From Candidatus Campbellbacteria bacterium (GTDB lineage: Bacteria > Patescibacteriota > Minisyncoccia > Phycocordibacterales > EsbW-18), in contig CP064977.1 of NCBI GenBank assembly GCA_016699465.1, positions 409,743-473,742 on the forward strand: 64,000 nt of DNA, given 5' to 3'. Of the stretch, positions 37,262 through 63,617 are shown piece after piece. The notes below the pieces were generated by a model that did no database searches, was not told where the DNA came from, and worked only from the letters and a program-made list of their open reading frames with translations. Numbering within the stretch: position 1 is the stretch's first letter; each line of letters starts with the position of its first letter. The position numbers and the translations under genes are program-made.

Positions 37262-37714
37262 CCAAAATATTTCCACTCTTCAATGTTTGTGTAGTATTCC
37301 CCGACGTATACATCGGAGCAAAAAGAAATCAGCGCGCTATGAATCGATTTTCAGATTACCTAACAGGAGATGTCGACGAATTAGTACATCTCGGCTCCAC
37401 ACATTACTGTGCGTCCACCTAATGCCTATCAACGTGATCATCTCTCACGGGTCTTAATGATTTCTAATCTTGAAGTTGGCTTCCCTCTTAGATGCTTTCA
37501 GAGGTTATCCATTCCCGACATAGCTACGCAGCGGTGCACCTGGCGGTACAGCTGCCACACCAGAGGTCAGTTCATTCCGGTCCTCTCGTACTAGGAACGA
37601 ATCTTCTCAAAAATCAGCGCCTGCAGCAGATAGGAGACCAACCTGTCTCACGCATGTTTCCAACGATTGCTCGTTGCATTGGACTATACCTTATACCTCG
37701 CTTTGCGAGTAAAC

Positions 37715-38375: not shown

Positions 38376-38411
38376 AGTTCCAGAACGGTCTGAACCCAGC
38401 TCGCGTACCTT

Positions 38412-38444
<33 letters not shown>

Positions 38445-39044
38445 TCTCCAGCCCCGGGATAAGGTGAGCCGACATCGAGGTGCCGAACACCACCGTCGCT
38501 ATGGACGCTCGGGTGGTACCAGCCTGTTATCCCCAGAGTAGCTTTTATCCGTTGAGCTCCCCCCGCATCTAAAGCGAAAGGTCGGATCACTATGCTCTAC
38601 TTTCGTACCTGCTCGACATGTCCGTCTTGCAGTTAAGCCCTCTTTTGCCATTACACTATCGGCACGGTTTCCATTCGCGCCTAGAGGACCTTTATAGACC
38701 CCTCCGTTACTTTTTAGGAGGGATTCGCCCCAAACAAACTACCTGCCAGATACTGTTCCCTACCGTTTTTGCCGTCAGGGTTAGAACGTACAATTCAAAA
38801 GAGTGGTATTTCATATTTCGAGTCCAGCAGAGCCAAAACCCTGCCTTCAACCTCTCCCACCTATGCTACGCATTTAACTCGTACGCCCAATATCAAGCTG
38901 TAGTAAAGCTTCTGGGGTCTTTTCGTCTAGCTGCAGGTAGAGGGCATCTTCACCCCCATTGTATTTTCACCGAGCGAGTCCTCGAGACAGTTCCCCAGTC
39001 GTTACACCATTCGTGCGCGTCAGAACTTACCTGACAAGGAATTG

Positions 39045-39083
<39 letters not shown>

Positions 39084-40849: not shown

Positions 40850-40940
40850 AATCCAAAATCCAAAGTTCAAAATCCAAAAAAATTCTAAGATTTTAATTCT
40901 TAAAAACTTTTTTGAGCTTTGTACTTTAAGCTTTGTGCTT
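40850..40940. repeat. short hairpin-only copy of the same palindromic repeat in the 23S 5' domain
   Basis: aatccaaagttcaaaatccaaaaaaattctaag...ctttttttgagctttgtactttaagctttgtgctt. Confidence 0.5.
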
Positions 40941-41912
40941 ACCCATCACATCCAATGTGATGCGCACGGTTTGGGCTTCTCCCGTTTCGCTCGCCGCTAC
41001 TAAGGGAATGACAATTGTTTTCTTTTCCACTGGGTACTGAGATGTTTCACTTCCCCAGGTATGCTCCTCATATTGCTATGAGATTATCGAGGGTTACTCG
41101 ATAGGGTTTCCCCATTCGGAAATCTCCGGATCAAAGGTTGCTTAACACCTCCCCGAAGCTTATCGCAGTTACACCACGTCCTTCATCGCCACATTGAACC
41201 AAGGCATCCACCATACGCCCTTTAAATCTCCCGTTAGGAAATCTAAAAACCGTCTCGCATACAACCGCCTACAAAGTGGTTGCATGCTACTTTCATATTT
41301 CTACTTGATTGTTTCATTGGAGCTAGATTAACCAATGAAACTACCTGCTCTTGTCTTACTCAAAAGACAAGAATTTTTGATTCTTTTTGCCCCGACTTTT
41401 TATAGTCGGGATACTACCTATGCAGTTGTCAAAGTTCATCTACCTTGTATGAGAACAAAAAAACCGCTTTTTCAAGCGGAGATTTCTGAGGCACACCGAT
41501 TGTGCGCATTTAGATGCTCCGCGTCGATATGCAGTTAGCTGGTGTATTCATACTAGGTGTTGCCTATTATAGCCATGCAGAGCACCGTGTCAAGGATTTA
41601 GGTCCCAAAAATGCCTCTTTAGTGCAATCAAAAAATGAGACAAAAAACCCTTACAGAATAAAGGTTTTTAAGACCGTCTATAAAAGTCCTGAAAAGTCCC
41701 TGGGGAGAACCTGTGGGTAAGATTTCATTCGCCTCACTTTCTTGGAAACACGCATCGTTTTCTGCTGAAAACGCGCTCCCTCTCGAGCTCAGCTCTCCGA
41801 GAGTTTTCCAAAAAAGAAGGCTTCACCCCTAAGGTTTGGATACAAAAAAATAATGGAAAAGAGCCCGACGGACAAAGCTTTTAGACTCTTTTCCACGGGC
41901 TCTTGCACCCAC

Positions 41913-45999: not shown

Positions 46000-46152
46000 A
46001 TAATTAGATACTTGATATTAGATACTGGAAATAAGGATAAAAAACGATATAAAAACGCCCCCACGGGCAAAACCACTATAGCATAAAAGTGTGCTTTAAC
46101 AACACACACAAAAAGGTCGCGCAGAGGTATCTGCGCGACCGAAAAAAGAACG

Positions 46153-46953
46153 TCACTCGTTCATCTGCGCTGCCTGTCGGCAGCGCAGAAGCGCCCGACC
46201 GGCGATTCTCTTGCAGAGAGCTCGCTTATCCTCGTCTGAAAGATCTCGTGGCGTCCGGTTCCCCTTCTTCGCCTCACTGAGAGACGCCAGGAGAACACGC
46301 TCCTTCGTGTTCCCGAAGAGCGTATCAAGAATGTCCTCCATGGCGGGGAGAAGAAGTTGTGCCTCCCGCTTCCGAGAAAGCGTGTCCTTGCGTACACCCG
46401 GAAGCAAGGGAGCCATGATGAGATCCGCCGCTCCCCACACCGACATTGCAAACAGGAGCGGAAGCGGATCCACATACGACTTCGGCCACATCTTCTCCGC
46501 CATGCCCTCGCGGACAGGCAATGAGATCTGGGAAGCCACTTCCCTCCAGATATGCCAGAGTCTGGACAAAGAACGCTGAATCCGCTCCGGATAGGGCGGA
46601 CGCTTCAGACACCCAGCACCAGTGGAAAGGAATGCGAGCACCTTGTAGTAGGTGGAGAACGCATCCTCTGGCGACACGTGGACAGCCACGGATACGTCTC
46701 CCAGAAAGCGCTCCGTCGCGAAAACCTGCATCGCATTGTCCGCAACGTCGCCTTCACCTTCCTCATGAGGAACATCTAGAAGAAATGTCACTTGCTCACA
46801 GAACAGGCGAACCTCATCTGGCGTCCTCATGCTCCCCGGGAGCACCTTACGAAGAGCGTACAGCAGCCCGATTGCCTCGGCTTCCGAAGCAGTGTTCTTC
46901 CACCGCTCCTGAAACTGCCCCCACGACGTGATTACCGCTAACTGTCTCGGCAT
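46153..46953 (-). CDS. hypothetical protein (GC-rich, inserted in the str operon)
   Basis: Strong RBS GAGAAAGGAG. About 60% GC. No recognisable domain. Confidence 0.45.
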   Translation of the reverse strand: MPRQLAVITSWGQFQERWKNTASEAEAIGLLYALRKVLPGSMRTPDEVRLFCEQVTFLLDVPHEEGEGDVADNAMQVFATERFLGDVSVAVHVSPEDAFSTYYKVLAFLSTGAGCLKRPPYPERIQRSLSRLWHIWREVASQISLPVREGMAEKMWPKSYVDPLPLLFAMSVWGAADLIMAPLLPGVRKDTLSRKREAQLLLPAMEDILDTLFGNTKERVLLASLSEAKKGNRTPRDLSDEDKRALCKRIAGRALLRCRQAAQMNE

Positions 46954-47098
46954 GGATCACTCCTTTCTCGTTGGTCGCCCGCTCAATTAGGGCAACAGAT
47001 GATCCGTTGCCAATTCTCCGCAAAAGTAAACGGAAGTCAAGAAAACAGAAAGGCCGTGCGGGTACGCCCGCACGGCCAGAACTAAAAGAACCTATTCC

Positions 47099-47616
47099 TT
47101 ACGGAACGTACCCACCAATGACACCCTTCCAACGAAATTCGTTGATTTCGCCCCCATTTCCCTCCCTGCTCTGAAAGATGTCCACGGTCACACGATCACC
47201 CGCACGGGTAAGCGCACACACATCAACCGCTCCCTCGTTCATAGGCAATGAGTTTCTGATGGCCGTAAACTCCAGAGGGCTTCCCGACAGCATCAAAGGT
47301 CTACTGAATTGAATCTTCCCTTTTTCCGGACGTACGATAAGCTTGCATCCAGTAATCTTCATAACAACGACCGACGTTCCATCTGCACCTGCTGCGCCTG
47401 CAATTGCCCCAAGTGTCGGCATGCCAACAAACGAACCAATGATGGCACCACCAATCGCATCACCACCGGCGCCAGATGGTGTTACTTTTTCTTCGGCAAG
47501 CACCCGCACCTCCTGAACAATTGCGGTAACCGAAGCGTATTGTGTGACCTCCCCGCAATCGGAGTACTGGCCAACAACGGTCATGAGAACAAGCAGTGAA
47601 CCGCGCACATTCATGT
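47099..47616 (-). CDS. SlyB-like glycine-zipper outer-membrane lipoprotein family protein
   Basis: Signal peptide. Glycine zipper GAGGDAIGGAIIGSFVGMPTLGAIAGAAGADG. RBS AGGGGGAAA. GC-rich. Confidence 0.5.
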
Positions 47617-47773
47617 GTGTTTCCCCCTGTGAGTTGTTTGTGTTGGGTTGGGTGAACGATTTTTTCTTAATGCACACTACTCTTTTGAAAACAATCAGTC
47701 AACGTACCCAAGGAAAAAACACGCCTTGGGACGTGTCTTTTGCTTGTTTTTGACGGCTTAATTAAAATTCCAC

Positions 47774-48268
47774 TTATTTCTTCTTTGGTCTCGCAAGTGC
47801 GAAGTGAGCAAATGCTTTGTTGGCCTCCGCCATCTTGTGCACGTTGTCACGCTTTGCCATAGCACCTCCCTCTCCTTTACTTGCGGCAAGCAATTCTCCT
47901 GCGAGTCGTGTTGCAAAATCTGCACCCTTCTTTGCGCGAGCACCTTCAAGGAGCCATCGGAGTGCGAGTGCGAGCTGTCGTTCTGGACGAACTGGATGTG
48001 GCACCTGATAGTTGGCACCTCCCACACGTCGTGAGCGAACTTCCATTGTTGGTGCAACACTCTGAATGGTCTGTTCCAAAAATGCAGCAGGATCTTCGAC
48101 GTTGTTCTTTGTCTTTAAAATATCGAGGGCATCGTACACCAATTTTTGTGCAACGCTCTTTTTACCGTGCTTAATCACATGCGCAATAAGCTTACTTACC
48201 GTAACTGAGTGGTAGACTCGGTCTGGAAGCATTGGGTGTTTTTCTCGTTCTTTAAGTTTACGACGCAT
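47774..48268 (-). CDS. rpsG: ribosomal protein S7
   Basis: S7 family motifs (KHGKKSVAQKLVYDAL...). Confidence 0.85.
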   Translation of the reverse strand: MRRKLKEREKHPMLPDRVYHSVTVSKLIAHVIKHGKKSVAQKLVYDALDILKTKNNVEDPAAFLEQTIQSVAPTMEVRSRRVGGANYQVPHPVRPERQLALALRWLLEGARAKKGADFATRLAGELLAASKGEGGAMAKRDNVHKMAEANKAFAHFALARPKKK

Positions 48269-50608: not shown

Positions 50609-53308
50609 CTATCTTCCTTTCATCAATTCAGCCAAAAGTTGTTTCAGGAGTTCAATAAGTTGTGTTTGGAGTTGAATGAGAAACACATTAGTATTAGTGG
50701 CTATTCGTGCTCGCCCAGATGCACCACCTCCAGTAATCGCTTCCTCAACAGCCACTTCGTTCGGAGTTATATCAACCACAAAAATATCTTCGACTTCATT
50801 CGTATCGCCAGCAACAAGATCTGTTGCAAACGACGTAAATGAAATGACATTTCCATCATCAGAAATAAAAGGATTCGCCGAATACTCTGAAACTTCATTC
50901 CCTGCATCATTTACATTAATAAGCGTTGTTGTGTTTTGTGTACGATCACGAAGGAACACATCCGTCCGCTCACTATCAGTGTCATCTGGAGTGAGCACCC
51001 CCCTTGAATCAAACACCACGTACCGTCCATCTGTTGATATTGAAAAACATGAAGCCACCTCTTCCTCACAAGGTTGAGCCAACGATTCTTCTCCTGCAGT
51101 AGAAACGCTCACTCGTTCAATCGTATCAAGTGTTCTATCATACACAAAAAGATCTCCTTGAGCATTTGTATCACCCGCAACAAGATTTGTTGCGTTGGAT
51201 ACAAAGACGGCATACCGACCCGTTGATGAAATAATCCCTTCGTATGAATCCTCATCTGCTTCTAACCCCGCCTCATCTACACTCACTCGTTCAATAGTAT
51301 TGAGTGTGCGATCGTAGACAAATACATCCATGGAACTGTTTGTATCCCCTTCAATGAGATTTGTTGCACTCGAAGAAAACAGCACGTATCGACCATCGTC
51401 AGATATATCAGATGCTCCAGCATTCGAATCCCCTTCGACACCACCACTTGTTTTATCAATAAGCTCAAGAGTCTCAGCATCTCTATCGTACAAAAAAACA
51501 TGATTGTATCCCCGGGTTGTTTCCGCCGTCAAAAGCCCACTTGTTTGAAATAAAACATACTGTCCGTTCCCAGAAATGGTGCCCCCTACTACATGTTCAC
51601 TATTTTCTGCACCTTCGCTACTCAAACTCACTCGTTCGATAACATCTGCGTTACGATCGTACACAAACATATCATCCTTACTATTTGTATCACCGACAAC
51701 AAAGTTACTTGCCCCAGAATAAAAAGCAACATATCGACCATCTGAAGAAATGGATGGATTTTTTGAAGCTCCATTGCCTTCGGCACCCTCATCATCCACA
51801 CTCACACGCTCAATAGTGTCGAGCGTGCGGTCATACACAAACACGTCTGTTACGCCATTTGTATCGTCGGCAACAAGATTTGTTGCATCTGACTCAAACG
51901 CAACATATCGGCCATCTGAAGAAACGACAGACATTATCGAACGAGCGTCCCCTTCACTCCCCGAAGGCGTGTCCGACGCACGACTGATAAGCTCAATTGT
52001 TTCAAGCGTACGATCGTACACAAATCTATCAGCAAATCCATTAGTATCCCCAGTGACAAGATTTGTTGCTGAAGAATTAAACGCAACATATCGCCCATCA
52101 TCTGAAATAGTTGGATACTCAGACGCACCAGTACCCTCAACTGACGCGGCACTCACACTAACACGTTCCGTGACTCCAGATAATTGATCGTGCACAAAGA
52201 TATCCGCAACAGCATTTGTATCACCCGCCACCAAATTACTTGCTTCAGAATCAAACACCACATACCGTCCATCATCTGAAATAGAGGCATTACTTGAATG
52301 ACTATCCCCCTCCACACTCTCACTATCAACACTCATCCGCTCAACCGTATCAAGCGTGCGGTCATACACGAACACATCAGTCGCTCCATTTGTATCACCA
52401 GCGACAAGATTTGTTGCCTCCGAGTCAAACGCAACATATCGCCCATCACCAGAAATAGCAGGGTCTCGTGATGAGCCATCACTTTCCAGACCATCACTAT
52501 CCACACTCACACGCTCGATGATATCGAAGGTTCTGTCATAGACAAAAATATCATCCGCAACACCTGTATCCCCACCAACAAGATTTGTTGCCCCTGAATC
52601 AAATGCGACATAGCGACCGTCTGAAGAAATGGATGGTTCGTTTGATGCAAAATTTCCTTCAACACCCTCACTATCCACACTCACGCGCTCAATAGTATCG
52701 AGCGTGCGGTCATACACAAACACGTCTGTTACGCCATTTGTATCGTCGGCAACAAGATTTGCCCCACCAGAATTGAATGCAACGTATTGCCCGTCATCTG
52801 AAATAGAAGCATCCCGAGAAGAACCATCACTTTCATTTCCAAGAGCATCAATACTTACCCGCTCAATCGTATCAAGTGCTCTGTCATACACAAAAATATC
52901 TTGTACCAAATTTGTATCACCAGCAACGAGATTTGTTGCATCCGATTGAAATGCCACATATCTACCATCTGAAGAAATAAACGGCTTGTCAGATGCGTCA
53001 TCACCTTGAGTACCGTCAGTAGCAACACTCACTCGTTCAATAGCATTGAGCATGCGGTCATACACGAACACATCAGTCGCTCCATTTGTATCGCCAGCGA
53101 CAAGATTTGTTGCATCTGACTCAAATGCAACATATCGGCCATCAGATGAAATCGAGAAATGCGCTCTGTTTACAGAAGATGCATTACCTTCCGCCCCCAA
53201 AACGGTGAATGTTGATGTCGGCACACTCACATGCTCAACGGTTCGTGCGTATACACACAGCGGTACTACAAACGATATAAGTACTGTTGTAATTATTTTT
53301 TGTATCAT
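50609..53308 (-). CDS. large secreted protein with about 16 tandem PD40/TolB-like beta-propeller repeats
   Basis: Signal peptide. Repeating unit about 55 aa: ISSDGRYVAFDS.ATNLV.GDTNG..DVFVYDRTLDTIERVSV. The repeats are also near-identical at the nucleotide level. Confidence 0.55.
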   Translation of the reverse strand: MIQKIITTVLISFVVPLCVYARTVEHVSVPTSTFTVLGAEGNASSVNRAHFSISSDGRYVAFESDATNLVAGDTNGATDVFVYDRMLNAIERVSVATDGTQGDDASDKPFISSDGRYVAFQSDATNLVAGDTNLVQDIFVYDRALDTIERVSIDALGNESDGSSRDASISDDGQYVAFNSGGANLVADDTNGVTDVFVYDRTLDTIERVSVDSEGVEGNFASNEPSISSDGRYVAFDSGATNLVGGDTGVADDIFVYDRTFDIIERVSVDSDGLESDGSSRDPAISGDGRYVAFDSEATNLVAGDTNGATDVFVYDRTLDTVERMSVDSESVEGDSHSSNASISDDGRYVVFDSEASNLVAGDTNAVADIFVHDQLSGVTERVSVSAASVEGTGASEYPTISDDGRYVAFNSSATNLVTGDTNGFADRFVYDRTLETIELISRASDTPSGSEGDARSIMSVVSSDGRYVAFESDATNLVADDTNGVTDVFVYDRTLDTIERVSVDDEGAEGNGASKNPSISSDGRYVAFYSGASNFVVGDTNSKDDMFVYDRNADVIERVSLSSEGAENSEHVVGGTISGNGQYVLFQTSGLLTAETTRGYNHVFLYDRDAETLELIDKTSGGVEGDSNAGASDISDDGRYVLFSSSATNLIEGDTNSSMDVFVYDRTLNTIERVSVDEAGLEADEDSYEGIISSTGRYAVFVSNATNLVAGDTNAQGDLFVYDRTLDTIERVSVSTAGEESLAQPCEEEVASCFSISTDGRYVVFDSRGVLTPDDTDSERTDVFLRDRTQNTTTLINVNDAGNEVSEYSANPFISDDGNVISFTSFATDLVAGDTNEVEDIFVVDITPNEVAVEEAITGGGASGRARIATNTNVFLIQLQTQLIELLKQLLAELMKGR

Positions 53309-53503
53309 ATGAATGTTTTTGCCATGCCACCTATTTTGAAGCGACAGTAAATAAATAAAAAACATAACACCTACATGTATCATACCTATCGCTTCAGTAT
53401 ATCAGGTTTTTATTTTTTCATGGTTTTACTCACCCACATACAAAAACACTCGGCACAGAGCTGGGTGTTTTTATTTACTACACACCTCACCCCTAACAGG
53501 CCG

Positions 53504-54370
53504 CTACTTTCTATTTTTAATAGTTGTGCCATCACTCTCAAACATAATCGTACCAAGATCGTACGTGGCGAACGTTTGGATACTTGAGGAAGCGAACAAA
53601 TCCATCACCTCTTTGTGTGGATGATTGTACTGATTGTTCTTTCCTGCTGAAATAATGGCATACATTGGTGAGACCACCCGGACAAATTCTGGCGCACTCG
53701 AAGTACGCGAACCATGGTGTCCTGCTTTCAAAATGTTGCTTTTGAGCGTTGCTCCATCAAGTGACACAACATATTTTTCAACACCCTGAGGCGCATCCCC
53801 TGTCAACATCACCGTAGTACTTCCGTACACAACCTGCAACACAACAGATGCATTATTATCATTTTTTACACCGTTCATGTCGCGATCCGGATACAAAATG
53901 CGCACATATGCACCATCTTGAAAATTAACAGTTTGCCCACGACGCGCTTCAATATACGTTCCACCCTTTTGTACTTCTTGCTCAACAAGTTGTGTGTAGT
54001 ATCCGTACGTTCCACTGTCCGACTTCACACCAGGATCCATAACGTACGATACATCATACCGTCGCAACACTTCAGGCAGTCCCCCGATGTGATCTTTATC
54101 TGGGTGTGTATTGAGGACCACATCTATACTTCTATCAAAAAACGGCATCACGTCTGAAAGTTTTTGTATGACACGTTTGTCAGGACCTCCATCAACGAGC
54201 ATTTGTTTTCCTGATGGACTAACAATCAATATAGAGTCTCCCTGTCCCACATCTAAAAATGCAACAGTTAAAACACTCTCGCGTTCAAATTGACGCGCAA
54301 CATACCAAATACTTCCCGCTATAAACACGAGAAGTCCAAGTGCAAACATATACAGTTTCCATGAACGCAT
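53504..54370 (-). CDS. MBL-fold metallo-hydrolase (ComEC C-terminal-domain-like)
   Basis: N-terminal TM segment. VAFLDVGQGDSILIV...HPDKDHIGG. Confidence 0.65.
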   Translation of the reverse strand: MRSWKLYMFALGLLVFIAGSIWYVARQFERESVLTVAFLDVGQGDSILIVSPSGKQMLVDGGPDKRVIQKLSDVMPFFDRSIDVVLNTHPDKDHIGGLPEVLRRYDVSYVMDPGVKSDSGTYGYYTQLVEQEVQKGGTYIEARRGQTVNFQDGAYVRILYPDRDMNGVKNDNNASVVLQVVYGSTTVMLTGDAPQGVEKYVVSLDGATLKSNILKAGHHGSRTSSAPEFVRVVSPMYAIISAGKNNQYNHPHKEVMDLFASSSIQTFATYDLGTIMFESDGTTIKNRK

Positions 54371-54710: not shown

Positions 54711-54781
54711 AAGAAAAACGCGGCTTCCATCTTCCCCGAAGGGTTGATGTCAGCCGCGCTGGGCGTCTCGTTGCATTCGTC

Positions 54782-55617
54782 TCAGAGCTGGGCAAACTTC
54801 TCCGTCAGATCGTTGACGAACTGGTGGAACTCGGGCTTCTTCTGGATGTCGGCTTCCCACGCAATCCCCATGTCCACCAAGTTGAACGTCTCCTTGATGT
54901 AGGCACCGGGAACGATGTCGCCGGTCGTTGGATTGCGATCACGACCCATCAGCCAAATCGTGTCCGCGATCTTCGCTGCTGCCGTGATGTCGTGCGACAC
55001 GACGATGGTGGTGTTGAGCTCATTCATGGAGGAAACCTCCATGATGAGATCACAGACACGGTTCTTCACGAGAGGGTCGAGTCCCGAGAACGGCTCGTCC
55101 ATCAGAAGAAAGTGTTCTGAACACATCAACTGTTGAGCGATGGCAACACGCTGGCGCTGGCCGCCAGAAAGCTGCTTGGGGTACTTCCCCGAGTGCTCGG
55201 TGAGACCGAACTTCTCGAGCAGACCTTTGGCTTTCACCAGGGACTGCTGGTCGTTAAGGCCAGCTTGTTTCCCCGCCACAACAAGGTTGCCGAGCACTGT
55301 CCGGTGCATCAGAACACGGTAGTCCTGAGACACCACACCAACTTGTCCCGCCGAAACGGGAATGCCGGTTCCGTTGAGAACGACCTGTCCTACAGTTGGA
55401 TGGAGAAGGCCCGCCATGATGCGGAAGAGTGTCGTCTTGCCGACGCCCGAGGGGCCGAGAAGTGCGACAACCTGCCCGCGAACGAAACCTTCCTGCTTGA
55501 TGTTGTAGACAGCCGTCGTCACGTCGCGGAGAATCGGAACATCCATCCCTTCTGGGGTGAAGCCGACACCGTCGATGTGAAGAAGGATCTCGCCGAACGT
55601 GTAGGTGGGAATCATGG
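54782..55617 (-). CDS. ABC transporter ATP-binding protein (GC-rich block)
   Basis: Walker A GPSGVGKTT, signature LSGGQRQRVAIA, Walker B LLMDEPFSGLD. RBS GGAGAAGAGG. Start immediately follows the permease stop. Confidence 0.8.
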
Positions 55618-56408
55618 CTACCTCTTCTCCAGTCCCAATTGGGACCACGGGCAGACCGCGCGTTTGAACATCACCTGCACCTGATCGAACAACAATCCGA
55701 TACAGAGGATGGAAAACTGGATTGCGTAGATCTCAGGCAACTTGAGGAACTTGCTCTGTGTAAGCAGCAATGCCCCGACGCCACCCTCCGATCGCACCAG
55801 TCCTTCCACTACCGTCAACATCATCCACGCGATTGCCGCGTTCTGCCGTATGGCCTCGAGCACCAAGTCGGCCTTGCCGAGCACGATGACTTCGAAGACT
55901 GTTCGCCACGGTCCCATGCGGAGTGTCCGCGCATGGTCGAGCTCGTCTTTCGTCACTGAATCGACGATTGACAGAATGCTCGGAACCATGAAAACAGACA
56001 AACCAAACACGAGAACCGTGAGCTTGAGCAGGTGTCCACCCCCCGTGAGAAGGGTGAAGATGAAGTTGAGTCCGACGAGCCCGAGGAAGCGCATCTTGGA
56101 GACGAGCTGTCCAGCAGGCTTGAAGAATTGCAGGACACGAAGGTAGCCGAGCCCGAGTGAGAATGTGGTTGCGATGAGAATCGCTTCCACACAGGTCACG
56201 AAGCTGGCCTTCATCGCCTGACCCAAACCGTAGCTGATCCATAGGTGCCCAAAGGCACCGATGACCTCCATCGGCTTGGGAATGACCTTCATGGGCCAGG
56301 CGATCCAGATTCCGAGAGCCACCAGTACCTGGAACGCTACCATGATGGCAGCGTCCTTCCTGGGCACTGTGGCGTGCGGCGTGAACAGCCGCGCGAGTGC
56401 GGTTTTCA
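55618..56408 (-). CDS. ABC transporter permease (NitT/TauT-like)
   Basis: 6-TM permease with an EAA-like loop. RBS AAAGGAGAG. Confidence 0.7.
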
Positions 56409-56659
56409 TCTGTCGTACTCTCCTTTCTGATTGCTGTGTGCTGAGCGCGGAATGCGCTAATTCTGTTTCTGTAATGCAACGAGTTATCAAGGAACACGCG
56501 AGAACGCGTGCAGAATCTGTCTGAGATTAGGCACCTTCTCAAAGCTCTCGCACAATACAAGAGCTCTGAAAGATGCCCGTGCACCGGAGGGTTTGAACCC
56601 ATACGATGCACGAGCGACGGTATTACAATGGAACGGTGTTACTTACCCGATGACGGGGC

Positions 56660-58483
56660 TCAGTTCGTCGAACCGAGCACAATCTCCACACGACGGTTCT
56701 GTGCCTTGCCTTCGGACGTCGTGTTGGACGCCTTGGGCTCGGTCTCGCCGAACGCACGGATGCGAATTCGGCCGTTCGGGAAGTTGGCAGGAGCTTCGTG
56801 CTCCAACCACTCCTTGACGGCGAATGCACGCTGCTCGGAGAGCAGCATGTTACTCTCGTCGTCTCCATCGGAGTCGGTGTGTCCGTGAACCTCCACGGCT
56901 AGCGCTTCGGCGATGACGAGATCCTTCAGCAACTGCTGAAGCTTCGCGAGTGCATCTGGCGTGAACTGGGCCGAGCCACTCACGAAGTTGATCTGCCATG
57001 CTTTGCGCGACACCTCGTCACGAATGCGGGTGGATGACGTGAATGTCGGCGCATCGGCCGTCGTTGTGACACCCACCCGATCCCGAAGCTCTTCGATGAA
57101 CCGGGTGTTGATCACCTGATCCACAGGAGTGTACATCGGGAAATCCTTCGGGTACTGCTGCGAAAGCAGCGAACCGAAGTTCTCATACACCAGCTTGGCG
57201 GTCTTCGCCGAACCAGGGGTCAGGCCGAACAAGCGCAGGTTGTCGGCGAGGTTGTTGGCGTAACTTCCGCCAAGTTCGACCTCGATTCCCTTCTTGTCGC
57301 GCTCGCGCACGACGGTGTAGTACTTCTTCCAGTAGGCCGCCGTCTCCTCGCGGTAGACGTCGGCGCTCACCTTTGCAGCGAAGTCCAGAGCGGCGGGACT
57401 GAACTTGATGTTGTCTCCACCTTCCAGCGCCGCACGCAGGAAGTTCACGACGAGCTCAGGGTGAGCCGTGTCGAACTTCTTGATGCCGATGATTGCGTTG
57501 GGCATCTGGCTGCTGTACTCCTTGGTAGAAGCCAGCGAAACCAAGCCACCCTTCTTCTGTGCAACCATCACATCGCCCGGCGTCCACGTTGCAACACCGT
57601 TGACGCAGACGTGCTTAGCGTCACCCGTACGCCGACCGTTCTTCACGACCGGACGGTCTTCGCAGTAGCCGGTGATGTACTTCTCCGCGGCATCCATGTA
57701 ACTGGCGGCCCGGACCCAGTTGACTGCGTCCGGATCGTACGTCGTTTCGTCGCGATTGTTGATGACGCCGTTGTCCCCCTGGAACTTCAAGCAGACGTTC
57801 CAGTCACCGTCAGTGATGACACCAGCGAAAAGCGCGCCACGCATGGCTTGCGGATTGTGCTTCCATTCCGGCAGACCCATGCACTTGTCCTCGCCGCGGC
57901 TGTAGCCGAGCGAGCCCACATATTCCACCGTGTACTCCGAGCCGAGCCGGCCGAGCGTATTGTTGACCGTCGTAACGAACGCGGGAGCACCGTCCCACAT
58001 GATGGACACATGAGTTGCGCCACCGCTACATTCCGAGCCGCCCGACGAAGACATCTCCGTCGCACAGGTGACGAGGTCGGCTTGCATCTGGCTCACGTCG
58101 TCCTGGCGGTACCAGTAGACGTTGCTTCCGTACTTCGCCATGAGCGAACCGTCCATGGGGACGTTCCCGCCCATCGCGTACCAAAGACCCATCTGCGAAC
58201 TCCACGCCCATCCGGCGATCCGCATCTGCGGGCCGGACATACGGGCGGGGGTGTTGCTCGGCGCCGACGAGGGGACGAATCCCTGCGTCGCCGACGAACT
58301 GGCGGTGCTCAGCGTCGGAAGATCGACCTGCTTGGGCAGGATCGACTTCATGATATTGCTGCCGGGGATGAGCCCGAAGTAATCGAGCCCCAGGTAGCCG
58401 ACGAAGAACGCGGCGATGATGATGCCGAGCTTGGGAAGCGGGCCCAGACGGGCCCAGAAACTGCGCTGATCGTTTCCGTTCAT
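56660..58483 (-). CDS. membrane-anchored periplasmic substrate-binding-like domain fused to a C-terminal OmpA-like peptidoglycan-binding domain
   Basis: N-terminal TM segment. Central SBP-like region. C-terminal OmpA_C motif (...AFGETEP...NRRVEIVL). Confidence 0.5.
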   Translation of the reverse strand: MNGNDQRSFWARLGPLPKLGIIIAAFFVGYLGLDYFGLIPGSNIMKSILPKQVDLPTLSTASSSATQGFVPSSAPSNTPARMSGPQMRIAGWAWSSQMGLWYAMGGNVPMDGSLMAKYGSNVYWYRQDDVSQMQADLVTCATEMSSSGGSECSGGATHVSIMWDGAPAFVTTVNNTLGRLGSEYTVEYVGSLGYSRGEDKCMGLPEWKHNPQAMRGALFAGVITDGDWNVCLKFQGDNGVINNRDETTYDPDAVNWVRAASYMDAAEKYITGYCEDRPVVKNGRRTGDAKHVCVNGVATWTPGDVMVAQKKGGLVSLASTKEYSSQMPNAIIGIKKFDTAHPELVVNFLRAALEGGDNIKFSPAALDFAAKVSADVYREETAAYWKKYYTVVRERDKKGIEVELGGSYANNLADNLRLFGLTPGSAKTAKLVYENFGSLLSQQYPKDFPMYTPVDQVINTRFIEELRDRVGVTTTADAPTFTSSTRIRDEVSRKAWQINFVSGSAQFTPDALAKLQQLLKDLVIAEALAVEVHGHTDSDGDDESNMLLSEQRAFAVKEWLEHEAPANFPNGRIRIRAFGETEPKASNTTSEGKAQNRRVEIVLGSTN

Positions 58484-58552
58484 TGTATCCTCTTTTCTGG
58501 TCTCTGTTTCTGTTGGTTCACTGCCACCCGATCAACGCGATCAAGGTGCTGT

Positions 58553-59650
58553 TCAGCGCGCCACGAGAAGTGGCTCGCGTTGCTGCGGGGTCGTGATGAC
58601 CTGCGCGAGACCGGAGACACCACCTTCGGTGAGAAGGCGCTGTTCGGACGCCGCGCGATCCAGCAAGTTCGTTGCCCTCGCGTCGAACTCGTCCATCTTG
58701 GAGAGTTCGGCGAACATCTTGTCCTCGGCCATGTCGCCCTCCAGCTCGTACGACCCCGTGAATTCCGGAGTCATCCGCATGAAGACCTCGACTTCGGCCT
58801 CGGACTGGGCGATCTGCTCACCCATGTACTCCATGGAGAGAGCGAAGAACTCCGCCTGGCTGTTCCCACCACCGAGCGTGCTCGACACGATGTTCACGGC
58901 CTCTCGGGTTTCCTCCGAGGCCTTGAACTCGGCCGTCATGATCTCGACGGTGAGTTGGATCATCCTGATGTAGAACTTGTACGCCTGGACGAACTTCTCC
59001 AGGACGACCTGCCGCTTCTTGAGAAGCTCGAGTTGGAACTCGAACTTCTTGAGCGACTTGGACCGCATCTCGTACTCGAAGGAAGCCTCGCGAAACTGCG
59101 CTGACTTCTCTTCACTGCTCCAACGGCCCGTCTTATCGTCGTAGTGACGAGACTTGAGGGCCTCCGCTGTTCTGCGAGCGGTCTCGATCTGCTCCTTGGT
59201 CACTGCGATCGCTCGCTCACGCTCTTTGACGATTGCGACGAGACGGCTGAGTGCACTGACCAAATTGTTGAGCTGGGTACCGAGGTACTCGTGCGCGTAC
59301 AACTTGGCGTGTTCCGCCGGGTTCATACGAAGAATCCAGAGGCTCATCTTCTTGGCAAGACGCCGGTAGATGTGCCATCCGAGAGTCCTTGTCCCCGGTT
59401 GGATTGCGACCCACACCGCACCACCGAGAAGCGCCGCCTTGATAGCGATCGCCGTCATGTAGCTGAACGATGTGCTGATGAGGCCGAGCGTCGAGACGAT
59501 GCTCGGCAGGACCAGAGGGCCGATGCCGAAGGTGACCGCCGCGACGATTGCCGCGAGGGTGAGTGCACCGACGACCTTCTCCTTCTTGGCCACGAAGTCC
59601 TTCATGGACGACGAGCCCGAGGAGAGTTGTGGAACTGAGGGCAGGTTCAT
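58553..59650 (-). CDS. membrane-associated coiled-coil protein, possibly TelA-like
   Basis: Two N-terminal hydrophobic segments then a long alpha-helical/coiled-coil region. RBS AAAGGA. Confidence 0.35.
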   Translation of the reverse strand: MNLPSVPQLSSGSSSMKDFVAKKEKVVGALTLAAIVAAVTFGIGPLVLPSIVSTLGLISTSFSYMTAIAIKAALLGGAVWVAIQPGTRTLGWHIYRRLAKKMSLWILRMNPAEHAKLYAHEYLGTQLNNLVSALSRLVAIVKERERAIAVTKEQIETARRTAEALKSRHYDDKTGRWSSEEKSAQFREASFEYEMRSKSLKKFEFQLELLKKRQVVLEKFVQAYKFYIRMIQLTVEIMTAEFKASEETREAVNIVSSTLGGGNSQAEFFALSMEYMGEQIAQSEAEVEVFMRMTPEFTGSYELEGDMAEDKMFAELSKMDEFDARATNLLDRAASEQRLLTEGGVSGLAQVITTPQQREPLLVAR

Positions 59651-59685
59651 GAATATCCTTTCTTGCAGTGCTTTCGTTGACCTAG

Positions 59686-60431
59686 TTACTGGTTGACTTC
59701 CGACAGAAGCCGCGAGAACTCCGACATCAGCGGTTCGTGAGCGCTCTCGAATCTGGCCCGGACTTCCGAGACCATGTTCGAGAGCTCGTTGACGCTCTGC
59801 TCGGCAAGGGCTCGCGCCCGCTTCGCCTCTTCGAGCTGACGCTCGAGATCGGCGACGTGCGACGTAGCGTCTTGCAACGCCTGCCGTCGACTGACCGTCG
59901 CCTGTTGCGACTCTTCGGCGATCTGCTCTTCGAATACGACACGCGCATTCTCGAGCACCGCCAGCCGTTCACGCACGGATGCGATGACCTGCTGACGACT
60001 GATCTTCTGGACACGCTCCAGAGACTTGAGCGTCATCGACACAGCCTGTCGTCTGTCGGCGACATCGTCGTCGATAACGTCGAGCTGTGTGAGAAACTCC
60101 TCGAGTCCTGCGGTCGTCACCTTCTCCGCGATGTCCTTTCGGAGTTTCGCGGAGAACGTCGGATCTGGCTCCTTGGGAGCGACCGACGATGATGTCTTCT
60201 GCTGAAAGCGCGCCGGTGCGATTCCGAGCGGCAAGAGCGGCTCGGAACGTACTGGCGGAGGAGGACTGGACGACGCATGACTTGCGAAAGTCGGCACGCG
60301 TCCAGACGGAGACGCCGCTCGAGGGGTCGGTGTAGGCACCGTCGAAGACGGCGTCTCCGATTCCCTCTTACGGCGCTCCAACTCCTCCGGGGTTGGAGCC
60401 AGGATGAGATCTCTGAGTTTCACGCTCATTA
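59686..60431 (-). CDS. coiled-coil protein with Pro/Ser-rich N-terminal region (hypothetical)
   Basis: RBS AAAGGAGTA then ATG (MSVKLRDL...). C-terminal heptad-like coiled coil. Confidence 0.4.
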
Positions 60432-61059
60432 CTCCTTTCTGATTCTGTTGCTGTTTCTGTATGCTGGTGAACGGTGACTTCTGACGTGCTTCTTCAGAGT
60501 CGATCGGTTGGTCGCTTCGGCCGCGCATTGAATGCACGCCAACCACGACGTTTTCCTCGAACATCCGAGAGAATCACGGCACTTCCGCTTTCTGGAAACG
60601 ACTTCTCCTTCCACACCGGTGGCGTGAGAGAAAAAGTAACGCTTCCTTGAAGTTCGGGAGTGTCTTCCTCTGCCTGTGCAACTGCGTACGGGCCATGTGG
60701 TCCTTCGAGGTACACCCGTTGGACGATACACACCCATCGCTTCTTCTGCGGTGGCGGAATAGTAATCACCTCCTTTCCATTGTAATGACAAAGAACAGTG
60801 AATAAGAAAAAGCTCGCAACACGATGTTACGGGCCTTTTCACTGGTCGCAAGTATAGCAAATTTAAAACATTCGTCAAGTAGACACACATGCTATTTTGT
60901 GTTGATTTAAAATACGAAAAAGCCCCGAACAAATCGGCCTGTGGGGCTCGTTCGTTTGGGGCCTGTGTATCTCGCGTAGGGTGATGCTTCAGCCGACTCG
61001 CTTCGCGTTGCGAAAGCGAATCTCGTCGATGCGTGCCGCCAACTTGACGGGTGTAGTAA

Positions 61060-61419
61060 CTAAGTTGTCTGGAGTTGGTGCGGAAGATGAGGTGAGCTCC
61101 TCGGCGTCATGGTAATGACGAGAGCGCAGAGAAACACCAGAATCGGACAAACCACTCGTCCCCCGAAGTCGGCCGCGTTCTCCATCCAACACTTCGGTCG
61201 ATTGGAGACTGCGTGGATGAAGACATTGAAGTCTCCATCCGCTCGAGTGCTGTACTTCCCTGAAGCACGCGCGATCACCTCTTGACGAAGCGTCTCCACA
61301 TATTGCGCATGCTCGAGTTGATGCGTGTGAAAAGCACCATGCCACCACGTGAGCCCCAGGTTTAGGAGCCCTACGAAACACAGTACCGCGGGTGCAACCA
61401 ATCTTGTGAGTCGGTTCAT
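61060..61419 (-). CDS. secreted hypothetical protein
   Basis: RBS AAGGAGAAG. Signal peptide LVAPAVLCFVGLLNLGL. Confidence 0.4.
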   Translation of the reverse strand: MNRLTRLVAPAVLCFVGLLNLGLTWWHGAFHTHQLEHAQYVETLRQEVIARASGKYSTRADGDFNVFIHAVSNRPKCWMENAADFGGRVVCPILVFLCALVITMTPRSSPHLPHQLQTT

Positions 61420-61432
61420 TGACTTCTCCTTA

Positions 61433-61600
61433 TGACTTCGTGAGAGGGACAGCACCGAGGAACTTCTGGAGCTCGATCTCTGCTTCGGCGATCTTCTCCT
61501 CCACGATGACAAGAGTCTTGTCGAACCCCTCCAACTCCGCCTGAACAACTTCTTGGTTCGGCCCTTCTTCGAGAACCGGCCCATCCACTTTCTTGTTCAT
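61433..61600 (-). CDS. small acidic coiled-coil protein (56 aa)
   Basis: RBS AAGGAGGAG, 3 nt, ATG. MNKKVDGPVLEEGPNQEVVQAELEGFDKTLVIVEEKIAEAEIELQKF... Confidence 0.4.
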
Positions 61601-61644
61601 TAACTCCTCCTTGGTCACTAGTTGATAAGGAACAATCCAAAAGA

Positions 61645-61672
61645 AATATAGCATATATAAAGTATTTGTCAA
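61645..61672 (-). promoter_or_regulatory. sigma70-like promoter TTGACA-N16-TATATT
   Basis: Minus-strand consensus -35 and a 5/6 -10, upstream of the 61600 gene. Shares ATTATAATGTTGACAAA with the 62337-62365 promoter. Confidence 0.45.
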
Positions 61673-61739
61673 CATTATAATATTTTGAAATCTTATATAA
61701 AAAGCCGAGATTCCCTATTGGAAACCTCGGCAACACACC

Positions 61740-62273
61740 TCACTTGTCTCGTATCTCTTCAAGCATTTTGCGCATTTCATCTGGAATGACGTTTCGTAGT
61801 CCAGGAACCGCAAATGGATTGTCGAGGGTCAGTGCTGTCATCCAGTAGAGAGAGAGCGCAAAGGTGGTACCACCAACATGTTCGATACCACTCCACACAC
61901 TATCAAACGGAAGGAAGATTGTTGCCCCAATAATCAGGCCCGTGAACGCGCCCAGCAGAACACGAACAAACGGCGGAATCTTTTTCTTTAACTCACGATT
62001 GAGTCGCTCAACATCATTGTCGGCAACACATTCATGAATTCGCCCGTCTTCTTCGATAACTCGAATAAGAATGAATCCTGCAACAATTGCGTAGAATGTT
62101 CCAAGCAATGGAATGAGCGAGTTCGTTGTCTCATCACTATCGTTCTTCGACTGATAGTATCCGTGGTTATGTAGCCACAACCACACACTCAAGACAATGA
62201 GAGTAACCAGAAGAGGTTGCGCGAGAATCTTGAAGTGTCTCCACTTCAACCTACCTGTTCCGTTATGTAACAT
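61740..62273 (-). CDS. integral membrane protein (hypothetical)
   Basis: 4-5 TM helices. Confidence 0.4.
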   Translation of the reverse strand: MLHNGTGRLKWRHFKILAQPLLVTLIVLSVWLWLHNHGYYQSKNDSDETTNSLIPLLGTFYAIVAGFILIRVIEEDGRIHECVADNDVERLNRELKKKIPPFVRVLLGAFTGLIIGATIFLPFDSVWSGIEHVGGTTFALSLYWMTALTLDNPFAVPGLRNVIPDEMRKMLEEIRDK

Positions 62274-62336
62274 GCTCCCTCACTTTCTTTGATTGATTGT
62301 TAGAGTTCGGGTGTTTCCATTTCTTTTCTGGTCTAA

Positions 62337-62365
62337 GTTATATATAAAAATATAGCGTTTGTCAA
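62337..62365 (-). promoter_or_regulatory. sigma70-like promoter TTGACA-N17-TATAAC
   Basis: Minus-strand. Conserved ATTATAATGTTGACAAA context. Confidence 0.45.
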
Positions 62366-62456
62366 CATTATAATCTATCCGTTTTTCTTTTGTATATAAA
62401 AACTGCCGGCAAGGGAAACCCTCGCCGGCAGAACTGCTACACCCGATTCTTCATCC

Positions 62457-63029
62457 CTACCTACCCTTGGAAATCTCCACGATGGTTGACGCCGGCCTTT
62501 GGTCGGCTCGTACCCACCCGTTCGCCGTTTTCTTGACGGCGAACGGGAAGGTGGTCACCTTCTGTTCAGTGTAAACAGGGGCAAGGCTACCATCGAAATC
62601 CACACACAAGACGAACGTTCCGTCTGTGTTTTTCGAGCTGAAGAGTCCGTTGGGTTCCGGCTGCTCGATGATGCCGCTCTGCCGATTGTCCTCGTAGGCC
62701 GGCTTGAGCGGGTTCGTCAGTTGGGTATCCACCGGAATGGCGAGCCCAACCGACGGACATTCGAAGAGTAGCTCACCCGTGATCGCAGTGACCACGGTGT
62801 AGGTGCTCCGGTTGCCCGAGACGGTCGCCTTGTAGATCTGGATGAGCACGTCTCGCGGCATCGAGTAATCGAAGAAGGGGATGGGTTGAACCTTAGCGTA
62901 GTGCGCCTGCTGGTCATCCACCACCTTGCGATCCATCCGCTCCTGACCGCCTCCACAGCTTTCGTTGCCGGCGAGAAGGACGAAGAAAAACGGACAGGCG
63001 AGTACAGCGAACAGTCTCTTGATGTTCAT
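62457..63029 (-). CDS. secreted/lipoprotein-like hypothetical protein
   Basis: Signal peptide with a Cys following (LLAGNESC). Confidence 0.4.
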   Translation of the reverse strand: MNIKRLFAVLACPFFFVLLAGNESCGGGQERMDRKVVDDQQAHYAKVQPIPFFDYSMPRDVLIQIYKATVSGNRSTYTVVTAITGELLFECPSVGLAIPVDTQLTNPLKPAYEDNRQSGIIEQPEPNGLFSSKNTDGTFVLCVDFDGSLAPVYTEQKVTTFPFAVKKTANGWVRADQRPASTIVEISKGR

Positions 63030-63050
63030 GTTCTCTCCTTGTGTACGGTT

Positions 63051-63434
63051 CTATGAGACGTTCTGTGCGAGGAACACCGTGATGGAACGCGGAACTTCAC
63101 TTTCCGGAATAAGGTCGGCCTCCGAACGCATCTTGTCGACGAGTGCCTTCTGCTGAGCGCGCTTCGCCGCCATGATCTTGACGCTCATGGAGTCGTCAAT
63201 GCTGGCGGAGAGCGCAATGCACTCCGACTCGAGCTTGAGCCACTCGTTGTGTAGCTCCTGCAGAAGCGAGACCTTAGCCTCGATGTACTGCTGGCTGTGC
63301 TGGACGACCTCCCGCTGAATGTTCATGAGTGGAAGATTCCAGATGCTCAGGTAGGCGCCGAGAACGGCGACGACTGTCGCTGCGAGGAACATCCATACGA
63401 TGAACTTGAGCACGTCCTTCATGGTGTCGAACAT
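63051..63434 (-). CDS. membrane-anchored hypothetical protein
   Basis: RBS GGAGAAGGAAAG. N-terminal TM segment. Helical C-terminal region. Confidence 0.4.
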   Translation of the reverse strand: MFDTMKDVLKFIVWMFLAATVVAVLGAYLSIWNLPLMNIQREVVQHSQQYIEAKVSLLQELHNEWLKLESECIALSASIDDSMSVKIMAAKRAQQKALVDKMRSEADLIPESEVPRSITVFLAQNVS

Positions 63435-63517
63435 GGCTTTCCTTCTCCTTTCTCCCGGAACGGGAGAACTTATGGGTTGGAATGAAATCGGGTTTACAAA
63501 CAACAAAACTGACGACT

Positions 63518-63545
63518 ATTATAGCAAGTATAAAACATTTGTCAA
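63518..63545 (-). promoter_or_regulatory. consensus sigma70 promoter TTGACA-N16-TATAAT
   Basis: Perfect -35 and -10 hexamers on the minus strand, upstream of the 63434 gene. Confidence 0.5.
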
Positions 63546-63617
63546 CCCACCTACGTGTTGTAACTATAACAAAACCACCCCACACATTTCTGTGCGGGGT
63601 GGTTTCAAATAGAGTGT

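Follow-up and report, generated by a model that had tools for sequence, protein, structure and literature searches.

An ABC transporter operon with an OmpA-fused binding protein and a PspA-like partner, shared by Campbellbacteria and large phages

What is a GC-rich block of envelope genes doing in the chromosome of a bacterium from the Candidate Phyla Radiation (CPR; Patescibacteria), and do these genes constitute one system or several? The question is raised by a 64-kb chromosomal stretch of a Candidatus Campbellbacteria bacterium (contig CP064977.1, positions 409,743 to 473,742, assembly GCA_016699465.1), hereafter the window, which also holds 23S and 5S rRNA and tRNA genes and in which the region from 55 to 61 kb has 55–61% GC against a background of 42–47%. 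A preliminary description made from the letters alone had seen nine minus-strand genes there and interpreted them as one co-regulated envelope transport or stress system acquired en bloc. The answer offered here is that an ATP-binding cassette (ABC) transporter, whose binding protein carries an OmpA-like domain, is encoded together with an apparently PspA/Vipp1-like membrane protein and a further helical partner, X, as a five-gene cassette that recurs in the same order in other CPR bacteria, in Longimicrobium and in phages. The presence of this cassette in many large phage genomes, and a conserved intercistronic RNA, are what is new.

The block and the proteins of its operon

The block contains eleven genes, as judged from a reading of open reading frames (ORFs) and from gene calls on an identical 14-kb contig, and all are on the minus strand as described; the count of nine had overlooked a conserved 91-aa gene preceded by a promoter of its own. 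The GC-rich composition is confirmed at the level of third codon positions. There the GC fraction (GC3) is 0.70–0.81 in the genes for the ATPase, permease, binding protein, w365, w247, w190 and w127 (window proteins being designated by w and their length in aa, with X being w247), 0.60–0.68 in those for the 119-aa and 56-aa proteins, and host-like, 0.47–0.48, in those for w177 and w91. Flanking host genes have 0.31–0.46, and the AT-rich spacers of the block are 32–42% GC. The proposal of a transport and stress module with an envelope role and a foreign composition is supported, with the proviso that a single nine-gene co-regulated system is not: only six genes share one promoter, and five of those six are conserved across phyla. 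Loci compared with the window carry L numbers, of which L001 is the identical copy of its region, L003, L004, L087 and L088 are other CPR loci and L005 and L006 are copies of L004. The features of the six-gene unit are as follows.

54782 to 55615, minus strand: ABC ATPase, 277 aa (PF00005, 3e-28; the start at 55615 agrees with the L001 gene call; GC3 0.72)
55618 to 56409, minus strand: putative ABC importer permease, 263 aa, about six transmembrane (TM) segments (sub-threshold BPD_transp_1 match; EAA-like loop DHARTLRMGPW read from the sequence)
56420 to 56472 (permease), 58490 to 58513 (binding protein) and 60432 to 60460 (X), minus strand: C/A-rich translation leaders, ACAGAAACAG ... CAGAAAGGAG
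56529 to 56611, minus strand: structured RNA of two neighbouring hairpins, of 11 bp and 24 bp, that directly follows the binding-protein gene on the 3' side
56660 to 58483, minus strand: binding protein, 607 aa, with anchor, linker, NitT/TauT-type domain and OmpA-like domain
58553 to 59650, minus strand: w365, 365 aa, predicted membrane-anchored PspA/Vipp1-like protein (ESCRT-III superfamily), from family profiles and an AlphaFold2 (AF2) model
59686 to 60429, minus strand: X, 247 aa, with a conserved short N-terminal peptide, a Pro/Ser-rich linker and a helical domain of about 160 aa
60494 to 60769, minus strand: 91-aa protein, GTG start, first gene of the operon, matched by homologues at the corresponding place in L003, L004 and L087 (GC3 0.48)
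60851 to 60878, minus strand: operon promoter, TTGACG-16-TATACT with extended −10 TG, scoring 10 of 12

The ATPase, permease and membrane-anchored, OmpA-fused binding protein had been recognized at the outset, and these identities hold, that of the permease at sub-threshold level in Pfam. The ATPase has Walker A (GPSGVGKTT), signature (LSGGQRQR) and Walker B (LLMDEPFSGLD) motifs and its best NCBIfam matches are importer ATPases, namely PhnT2, CysA, ProV, TauB and NrtD. For the permease NCBIfam gives a SaoP-type permease (4e-5), precomputed BPD_transp_1 matches are present in its orthologues from Longimicrobium terrae and a 100-kb contig considered below, and in 78 of 86 loci, then in 80 of 85 later ones (81 viral and four other), its gene is colinear with and adjacent to the rest of the cassette.

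The binding protein has a single N-terminal hydrophobic anchor by hydropathy (residues ~13–40), a Ser/Thr/Pro linker, a binding domain (~85–480) and an OmpA-like domain (~490–605). The last of these, 98 residues in extent, matches PF00691 at 7e-17 (62 bits against a cut-off of 27.2) and many PDB entries at 1e-22 to 1e-19. It has the motifs GHTD and LSxxRA/NRRVE, of which GHTD and LSxxRA are invariant in 119 sequences, as are D537 and R552 of the peptidoglycan-binding site. In length, motifs and Pfam score it is like the OmpA-C-like anchors of Pal, YiaD, YfiB, MotB, TssL and ZorB; unlike them it is joined to the binding protein of a transporter instead of to a porin, a lipoprotein or a stator. 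CPR bacteria are not known to have an outer membrane. The resemblance to ZorB does not extend to Zorya-type defence, which was considered and rejected, as the PADLOC matches to ZorB cover only residues 526–602, within the OmpA-like domain, and there is no match to ZorA; in all, PADLOC returned only generic ATPase and OmpA-domain matches.

No sequence-level match to the binding domain was found in Pfam or the PDB, and only a fold search classified it. With an AF2 model built from the 119 homologues (mean predicted local distance difference test score, pLDDT, 88.8) Foldseek retrieved NrtA (2g29, 2e-10) and TauA (6ssy, 2e-9, TMt 0.78), along with 2i49, 3uif and 4nmy, folds of CmpA, SsuA and ThiY type and various OmpA-like domains. 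The initial guess of a NitT/TauT-type binding protein was therefore right at the level of fold. The two-lobe fold appears intact, with many invariant residues of cleft type, and its nearest relatives bind nitrate, bicarbonate, taurine or other sulfonates, or thiamine precursors. In binding fold, small permease of about six TM segments with an EAA-like loop, and importer-type ATPase, the three proteins resemble TauABC, SsuABC, NrtABCD/CmpABCD and ThiY-type importers; they differ in that the window's binding protein is TM-anchored, is fused to a peptidoglycan-binding domain and has a binding domain to which Pfam has no match.

What of the 365-aa protein? It had been labelled TelA-like, a label with no support from Pfam or NCBIfam, and the suggested PF05816 matches neither it nor w247 nor their orthologues at E values up to 1. 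An exhaustive HMMER search did yield a family, of 137 clusters and all of 320–380 aa, of which 16 of 130 members match PspA_IM30 (PF04012), the best at 2e-6. The four top PDB matches of the family profile are Vipp1 (1.4e-3 to 6e-3), starting at the Asp/Asn-Pro that opens helix alpha1, and hhalign pairs the family with the PspA family of certain acidobacterial operons at 95.3% probability (E 2e-8, 184 columns). Depth is needed for this, since a shallow alignment of five sequences gave only 24% against PspA, and pairwise BLASTP of the window proteins against acidobacterial PspA, X and the TM-anchored Snf7-like protein of those operons (TM-Snf7) was uninformative. The AF2 model (pLDDT 80.9) has two TM segments followed by the expected run of long helices: TM segments at ~24–59 and 65–84, an alpha0-like helix, then helices 111–169, 180–256, 264–298 and 308–353, which agrees with the PspA layout of alpha0, an alpha1–alpha2/3 hairpin, alpha4 and alpha5. 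The acidobacterial TM-Snf7 family, for comparison, reaches only 16% with the w365 family. From these comparisons of sequence families we conclude that w365 is probably a membrane-anchored PspA/Vipp1-like protein, the assignment being at family-profile level. With PspA, IM30 and Vipp1 (7o3w, 6zvr, 8qbw) it shares the helical hairpin with alpha4 and alpha5, the 'DP/NP' start of alpha1 and profile matches in correct register; it departs from them in its N-terminal two-TM anchor, PspA being peripheral, in an identity of ~8–16%, and in falling below detection by Pfam. Within the ESCRT-III superfamily, PspA/Vipp1 proteins form the bacterial branch.

For X, hhalign finds homology (94.6%, E 7e-8) with the product of the conserved 234-aa gene that comes first in acidobacterial PspA operons, and its family comprises at least 169 proteins, mostly of Longimicrobium and all annotated 'hypothetical'. 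A profile search of the PDB returned generic coiled coils only. The 91-aa protein, whose gene shares its ribosome-binding site and GTG start with L004 and is found in CPR copies only, has no match in Pfam, NCBIfam, PHROG or the PDB.

Distribution among bacteria and large phages

Relatives of the binding protein are numerous: ~2,900 homologues were found, with a relative in 540 GTDB species and in 84 stretches of IMG/VR. Hidden Markov models (HMMs) from an acidobacterial locus, L002, and from the window genes were run against all loci fetched. Genes for binding protein, permease and ATPase lie side by side in 77–78 of 86 sources, most of the rest being short contigs, and in essentially all of 80 GTDB loci, so that the conserved synteny sought in high-GC genomes of diderms exists. 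What accompanies this triad is more varied. Of the 32 loci whose flanks extend 6 kb or more in both directions, 11 have in addition a TM-anchored helical protein of 330 aa ('SIG+TM+Snf7'), nine have X, PspA, a double AAA+ ATPase and TM-Snf7, three X and TM-Snf7, two AAA+ and TM-Snf7, one PspA and AAA+, and three have none of these; the pair seen in the window, X-like and TM-PspA-like, is present in the remaining three, all CPR. Altogether 29 of the 32 have ESCRT-III-like or partner genes, and the contrary possibility, that each gene would match an unrelated locus of a different donor, fails. The window's pair is also present in L041 and in L065, a Longimicrobium, in the CPR loci L087 and L088, and in the cultured Longimicrobium terrae, whose operon encodes proteins of 230 and 348 aa, a 608-aa OmpA protein, the permease and the ATPase. 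The exact five-gene order of the window is found in L. terrae and in L003, L004 and L087; L088, a contig of 4 kb, shows three of the genes only.

An operon of PspA, PBPB+OmpA protein, permease, ABC ATPase, TM-Snf7 and double AAA+ ATPase has already been described, by comparative genomics only, under the title 'The phage shock protein (PSP) envelope stress response' (mSystems 2024, PMC11237479), with OGG56892.1 of Candidatus Handelsmanbacteria as example. Common to it and the window are a signal- or TM-anchored PBPB+OmpA protein, permease and ATPase adjoining an ESCRT-III-superfamily member, and an upstream helical X gene; in acidobacterial versions (L002, L022, L024 and others) the binding protein is 50–54% identical to that of the window. 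The window's core operon is a variant of this operon without the double AAA+ ATPase and without TM-Snf7. The AAA+ HMM had no match anywhere in the window's 64 kb, nor in L003, L004 or L087, nor in the 10 kb to either side in L. terrae, and an HMM of the acidobacterial 330-aa family found nothing in the window or CPR loci. Other differences are the two TM segments of the window's own PspA-like protein, the CPR-specific 91-aa first gene and the structured RNA, and it is the window variant, not the published one, that occurs on phage contigs. How PspA assembly would be controlled without an AAA+ ATPase is explicitly an open question in that work (PMC11237479). A looser parallel, offered as analogy only, is with archaeal loci of ESCRT type, where an ESCRT-III-type gene and a solute-binding protein also share a locus; there the binding protein is ProX-like, Vps4 is present, an OmpA domain is not, and both lineages and binding-protein families are others (Makarova et al. 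2024, PMC11188069).

The phage connection came to light through a distant member of the w365 family on a 100-kb contig (L089) that is full of small ORFs and has the same cassette. A scan of IMG/VR gave the 84 binding-protein relatives mentioned, and 80 contigs were kept, 47 of them at least 100 kb and 26 at least 200 kb; with the 462-kb 'uncultured phage' LR756500.1 of GenBank (L170, cassette at 10666–15589) these constitute a viral set of 81 loci (L090–L169 and L170). A gene of the w365 family is present in 78 of the 81 (median E 3e-75), with an N-terminal hydrophobic anchor in 77 of those 78, and a member of the X family was detected in 53, where found being upstream of the w365 gene. Where a viral locus has all four of w365, binding protein, permease and ATPase, as 72 do, order and strand are in every case those of the window. 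TM-Snf7, soluble PspA and AAA+ are essentially absent. Contigs reach 578 kb, locus GC ranges from 0.22 to 0.64, and the neighbours include phage-type DNA polymerase, primase, helicases, a virion or baseplate protein, endolysin and RNA ligase, so that the contigs are to be regarded as real phage genomes. No paper linking large phages to the cassette was found in the literature. Two oddities may be recorded beside this: genes of TnpB/OrfB_IS605 type lie a few kb from the cassette in two phage loci (L170 7297–8262 and L111 16975–18198), and L169 (1836–9320) has three binding-protein paralogues, one in the cassette and two downstream of the ATPase gene.

How did the Campbellbacteria come by it? 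In neighbour-joining trees the five CPR copies form one clade, their transporter genes being closest to acidobacterial ones and their partner genes of the phage and Longimicrobium type. In the window, L004 and L087 the cassette is at the same site, between superoxide dismutase and a SleB-like hydrolase on one side and a 90-aa membrane protein and Lactamase_B on the other; in L003 it is elsewhere. Host proteins of the flanks are 56–66% identical, compared with 61–72% for the transporter proteins, and, the flanks being as diverged as the cassette, the latter was already in the common ancestor of these CPR lineages. Despite so long a residence its GC3 is 0.56–0.81 in the CPR genomes (window 54782–60429; L003 7998–13677), in a genome of 44–47% GC in the case of the window and of 41% in that of L003. 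The core is, in short, a horizontally acquired operon of foreign composition, kept for long without amelioration. It was not found in the plasmids of PLSDB.

Two observations concern the surroundings of the cassette. Some 4 kb downstream of it in L003 (17983–21794) is a large serine recombinase, followed by a further GC-rich stretch (54–58% in the 41% GC genome). In at least two CPR genomes, moreover, a ComEC-like protein is split into a competence-domain gene and a metallo-beta-lactamase gene on the same strand some 10.7 kb apart, with the genes for superoxide dismutase and SleB-like hydrolase and the entire island lying between them (Lactamase_B at 53504–54370 of the window, DUF4131+Competence at 505–1983 of L001; 2898–4406 and 14079–14960 of L004); the L087 contig begins too late to show the first half.

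Expression signals, the intercistronic RNA and the upstream genes

Terminators of the hairpin and T-run kind at 63570–63607, 62403–62431, 61704–61731 and ~60925–60965 split the block into four transcription units. From 60851 down to 54782 on the minus strand there is no other promoter-like site except weak intragenic matches, and we infer that the six genes from 60878 to 54782 are one operon. Six matches in the 64 kb score at least 11 of 12, three of them in the block, at 61672, 62365 and 63545. Near-consensus promoters in three spacers, two with an identical context, are thus present as described, with ATTATAATGTTGACAAA exactly twice in the window, at 61665–81 and 62358–74. Their use as a sign of co-regulation does not survive, since the form TTGACAAAT...TGcTATAaT is also present outside the block at 11563, at 30393 and at 41593, where it lies upstream of the gene for 23S rRNA, and is therefore the host's ordinary strong-promoter form and not evidence of a common regulon.

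Leaders shared by three genes had also been pointed out. ACAGAAACAG is indeed present exactly three times in the 64 kb, in the minus-strand leaders at 56463–72, 58504–13 and 60451–60, each time upstream of a CAGAAAGGAG-like ribosome-binding site; what does not hold is its conservation, as the exact 10-mer is missing from orthologous loci. There L003 has ACGCAAT repeats in the corresponding leaders, L004 A/C-rich leaders without the motif, and L065 ACGCACT repeats upstream of the permease gene. A conserved operator was accordingly rejected, and the feature conserved is a C/A-rich, probably unstructured leader, not a sequence motif. Such leaders may enhance translation.

The spacer between the genes for the binding protein and the permease is 170–250 nt long in the CPR copies, compared with 4–25 nt in the acidobacterial operons, and the 250-nt spacer folds with z = −4.67. 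Its two-hairpin RNA is conserved in all five CPR loci (the window, L003 ~11840–11935, L004 ~11860–11945 and the equivalents in L087 and L088), with 91.9% of cells paired as against 35–55% in slid controls, and with compensatory double changes in 17 of 35 pairs as against 1–5 in controls, a value reached by none of 500 shuffles. The hairpins that L041 and L065 have at this position are unrelated to it. No Rfam family matches the RNA or the rest of the block, and no U-run follows the hairpins in the window. Hairpins between cistrons, after the binding-protein gene, are familiar from importer operons, the repetitive extragenic palindromic (REP) elements of malE-malF and hisJ-hisQ being cases in point. 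These too are stable stem-loops 3' of a binding-protein gene and upstream of genes for membrane components; they are dispersed repeats, while the window's element is lineage-specific, covarying and of two hairpins. By analogy the hairpin pair is probably a 3' stabilizer, a processing site or a partial attenuator, raising output of binding protein relative to that of the membrane components.

Upstream of the operon are the five further genes of the block, in three units.

61060 to 61600, minus strand: unit 1, 56-aa acidic helical protein (61430–61600) and 119-aa two-TM protein (61060–61419); promoter 61645–61672, hairpin and T-run ~60925–60965
61740 to 62273, minus strand: unit 2, 177-aa protein with three to four TM segments; promoter ~62337–62365, terminator 61704–61731; GC3 0.47
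62457 to 63434, minus strand: unit 3, 127-aa protein with TM segment and coiled coil (63051–63434) and 190-aa exported protein (62457–63029); promoter 63518–63545, scoring 12 of 12, terminator 62403–62431

Each unit has its own promoter and terminator, and the orthologous CPR loci either lack the five genes or vary in them. Among the compared loci L087 alone has a homologue of the 119-aa protein (gene at 1880–2239; 8e-14), and only L004 and its copies have one of the 177-aa protein, which gives a weak, below-threshold Bestrophin-like match; the 56-aa protein has none, and the 127-aa and 190-aa proteins have none in other CPR loci. Hypothetical proteins from phages of Vibrio (~126 kb), Rhizobium, Synechococcus and Clostridium share 39% identity (3e-28) with the 190-aa protein, which also matches phrog_24725. 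Two of the original labels need amendment: the 119-aa protein, called secreted, has two hydrophobic segments and hence is a membrane protein, and the 190-aa 'lipoprotein' has a signal-like N-terminus without a canonical lipobox. A W-H-x-x-F-H-T-H-Q motif conserved in the former, together with Cys-Trp-Met, may be a metal-binding site. The five look like small envelope genes captured independently at a variable site, not like parts of the transporter.

Elsewhere in the window GC-rich patches of up to 61% at 27000–30000 (a FolD-like gene at 27293–28129 and two ORFs without a Pfam match) and at 46000–48000 (ORFs without a Pfam match) may be further foreign islands. A 924-aa protein encoded at 50609–53383 consists of many near-identical repeats of PD40/TolB type (SSDGRYVAF.S.ATNLV.GDTN...D.FVYDR). 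The genes for 23S rRNA (38306–41234) and 5S rRNA (36651–36758) are separated by those for tRNA-Leu and tRNA-Cys and by a match to the tRNA model of 151 nt (37113–37263), not called by ARAGORN and possibly an intron-containing tRNA; within the window there is no 16S gene upstream of the 23S.

An importer pinned to the wall, or something else?

How might the products of the cassette work together? The best-supported reading, which we hold at somewhat better than even, is of a wall-bridging NitT/TauT-like importer beside an anchored PspA-like protein and X that act in local maintenance or remodelling of the membrane; our confidence in the identities of the components is much higher than in this overall picture. 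A small solute would be captured by the binding protein and passed to permease and ATPase, as in type-I importers of the NitT/TauT kind. Meanwhile the binding protein would be fixed by its N-terminus in the cytoplasmic membrane and by its C-terminal OmpA-like domain to peptidoglycan, and so pin the complex to the wall. On the cytoplasmic face the PspA-like protein, held in the same membrane by its own anchor, may polymerize with X or under its control, and so stabilize or reshape the membrane at that site. Transcription would be from the host-type sigma-70 promoter, and the hairpins would set a higher ratio of binding protein to permease. Substrate class, physical coupling of transporter and PspA-like protein, and polymerization are the parts of this that we infer.

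Several points tell against this picture. The permease match to PF00528 (BPD_transp_1) is at 2e-4 and 21.6 bits, under the 26.4-bit cut-off. Taken alone w365 gave nothing useful in Pfam, NCBIfam, PHROG or PADLOC, and no PF04012 match above gathering score; a word-indexed homologue search with it found only itself, and tblastn against GenBank phages found nothing. Its apparent link to PspA comes from comparison of family profiles, and coiled-coil profiles can inflate scores. The AAA+ ATPase of the related operons with soluble PspA is absent, and remodelling of PspA type may differ here or not occur. For the ligand, fold class is the one clue that the sequence offers, and co-transcription of the six genes is deduced from an absence of internal promoters or terminators.

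The main rival dispenses with import as the purpose. The ABC module would be a wall-anchored mechanotransducer or sensor, with the doubly tethered binding protein reporting the distance from membrane to wall, or a wall-derived ligand, and with the ABC ATPase rather than an AAA+ ATPase powering assembly and disassembly of the anchored PspA-like polymer. There is a strict exclusivity in its favour: AAA+ accompanies soluble PspA in 18 of 22 loci, the four exceptions being near contig ends, and is absent from every bacterial locus of w365 type, one viral locus, L123, having an AAA-type match 5 kb upstream. The ABC triad is, besides, the invariant core, beside which the ESCRT-III-like partner varies. 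Double fixation of the binding protein is unusual in an importer component that cycles freely and is reminiscent of peptidoglycan-anchored stators, the protein's OmpA domain being MotB/ZorB-like. However, the permease seems to have the fold signature of type-I importers, and an EAA-like loop, the ATPase is closest to those of importers, and the predicted binding domain retains both its lobes and a cleft rich in invariant residues, features that favour import, and we consider the sensor unlikely. A bolder version, in which the five genes constitute a self-contained, mobile, wall-anchored membrane-remodelling machine of very large phages and a few bacterial lineages, with a peptidoglycan-pinned ABC transporter in place of the AAA+/Vps4-type ATPase to power or control a membrane-anchored ESCRT-III-like polymer, strikes us as improbable.

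Irrespective of which of these applies, the cassette could be a module by which large phages take over or protect their hosts, through membrane integrity or feeding in long infections or through exclusion of other phages, the CPR copy being a domesticated phage set that may serve defence or exclusion. This is compatible with importer and sensor alike. The dozens of long viral contigs with a relative, the unbroken colinearity of the complete viral loci, their replication, virion and lysis neighbours, the cassette of LR756500.1 and the phage homologues of the island's 190-aa gene all speak for it. Against it are the absence of integrase, structural or replication phage genes near the cassette in the window (an intact prophage is rejected, no integrase or structural genes being there), the one chromosomal site shared by three CPR genomes with flanks equally diverged, the closeness of the transporter genes to chromosomal acidobacterial versions, and the PADLOC hits, generic ones only; we regard this reading as improbable. 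Two simpler ideas fare worse. That the block is a TelA-type island for resistance to tellurite and other toxic anions, or a generic stress island, has in its support a weak PHROG 'tellurite resistance' coiled-coil match (5e-4), the sole TelA-like signal, and it is to the 247-aa and not the 365-aa protein; with neither protein matching PF05816 at E 0.1–1 and the families pointing to PspA/Vipp1 and X, we give this next to no credence. That the genes are unrelated passengers of shared GC-rich origin may suit the five upstream genes, which are unconserved and separately transcribed, but for the cassette it is very hard to sustain when CPR, Gemmatimonadota and phages, at a GC content from 22 to 70%, all have the five genes in one order.

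For CPR biology, the putative wall-anchored importer operon is a case of an ancient foreign operon at one chromosomal site, with host promoters, a structured RNA of its own and a GC-rich composition that has not been ameliorated. More broadly it provides a compact and widespread test case, with a cultured carrier in Longimicrobium terrae, in which an anchored PspA-like protein is always beside what is probably a peptidoglycan-tethered ABC importer. Its colinear presence in dozens of phage genomes of 100–580 kb suggests that large phages carry a 'phage-shock-type' envelope module of their own. Should the mobile remodelling machine turn out to be real, phages would be using it on their host's envelope, to hold or reshape it while they infect, and the copy in Campbellbacteria would be one long domesticated.

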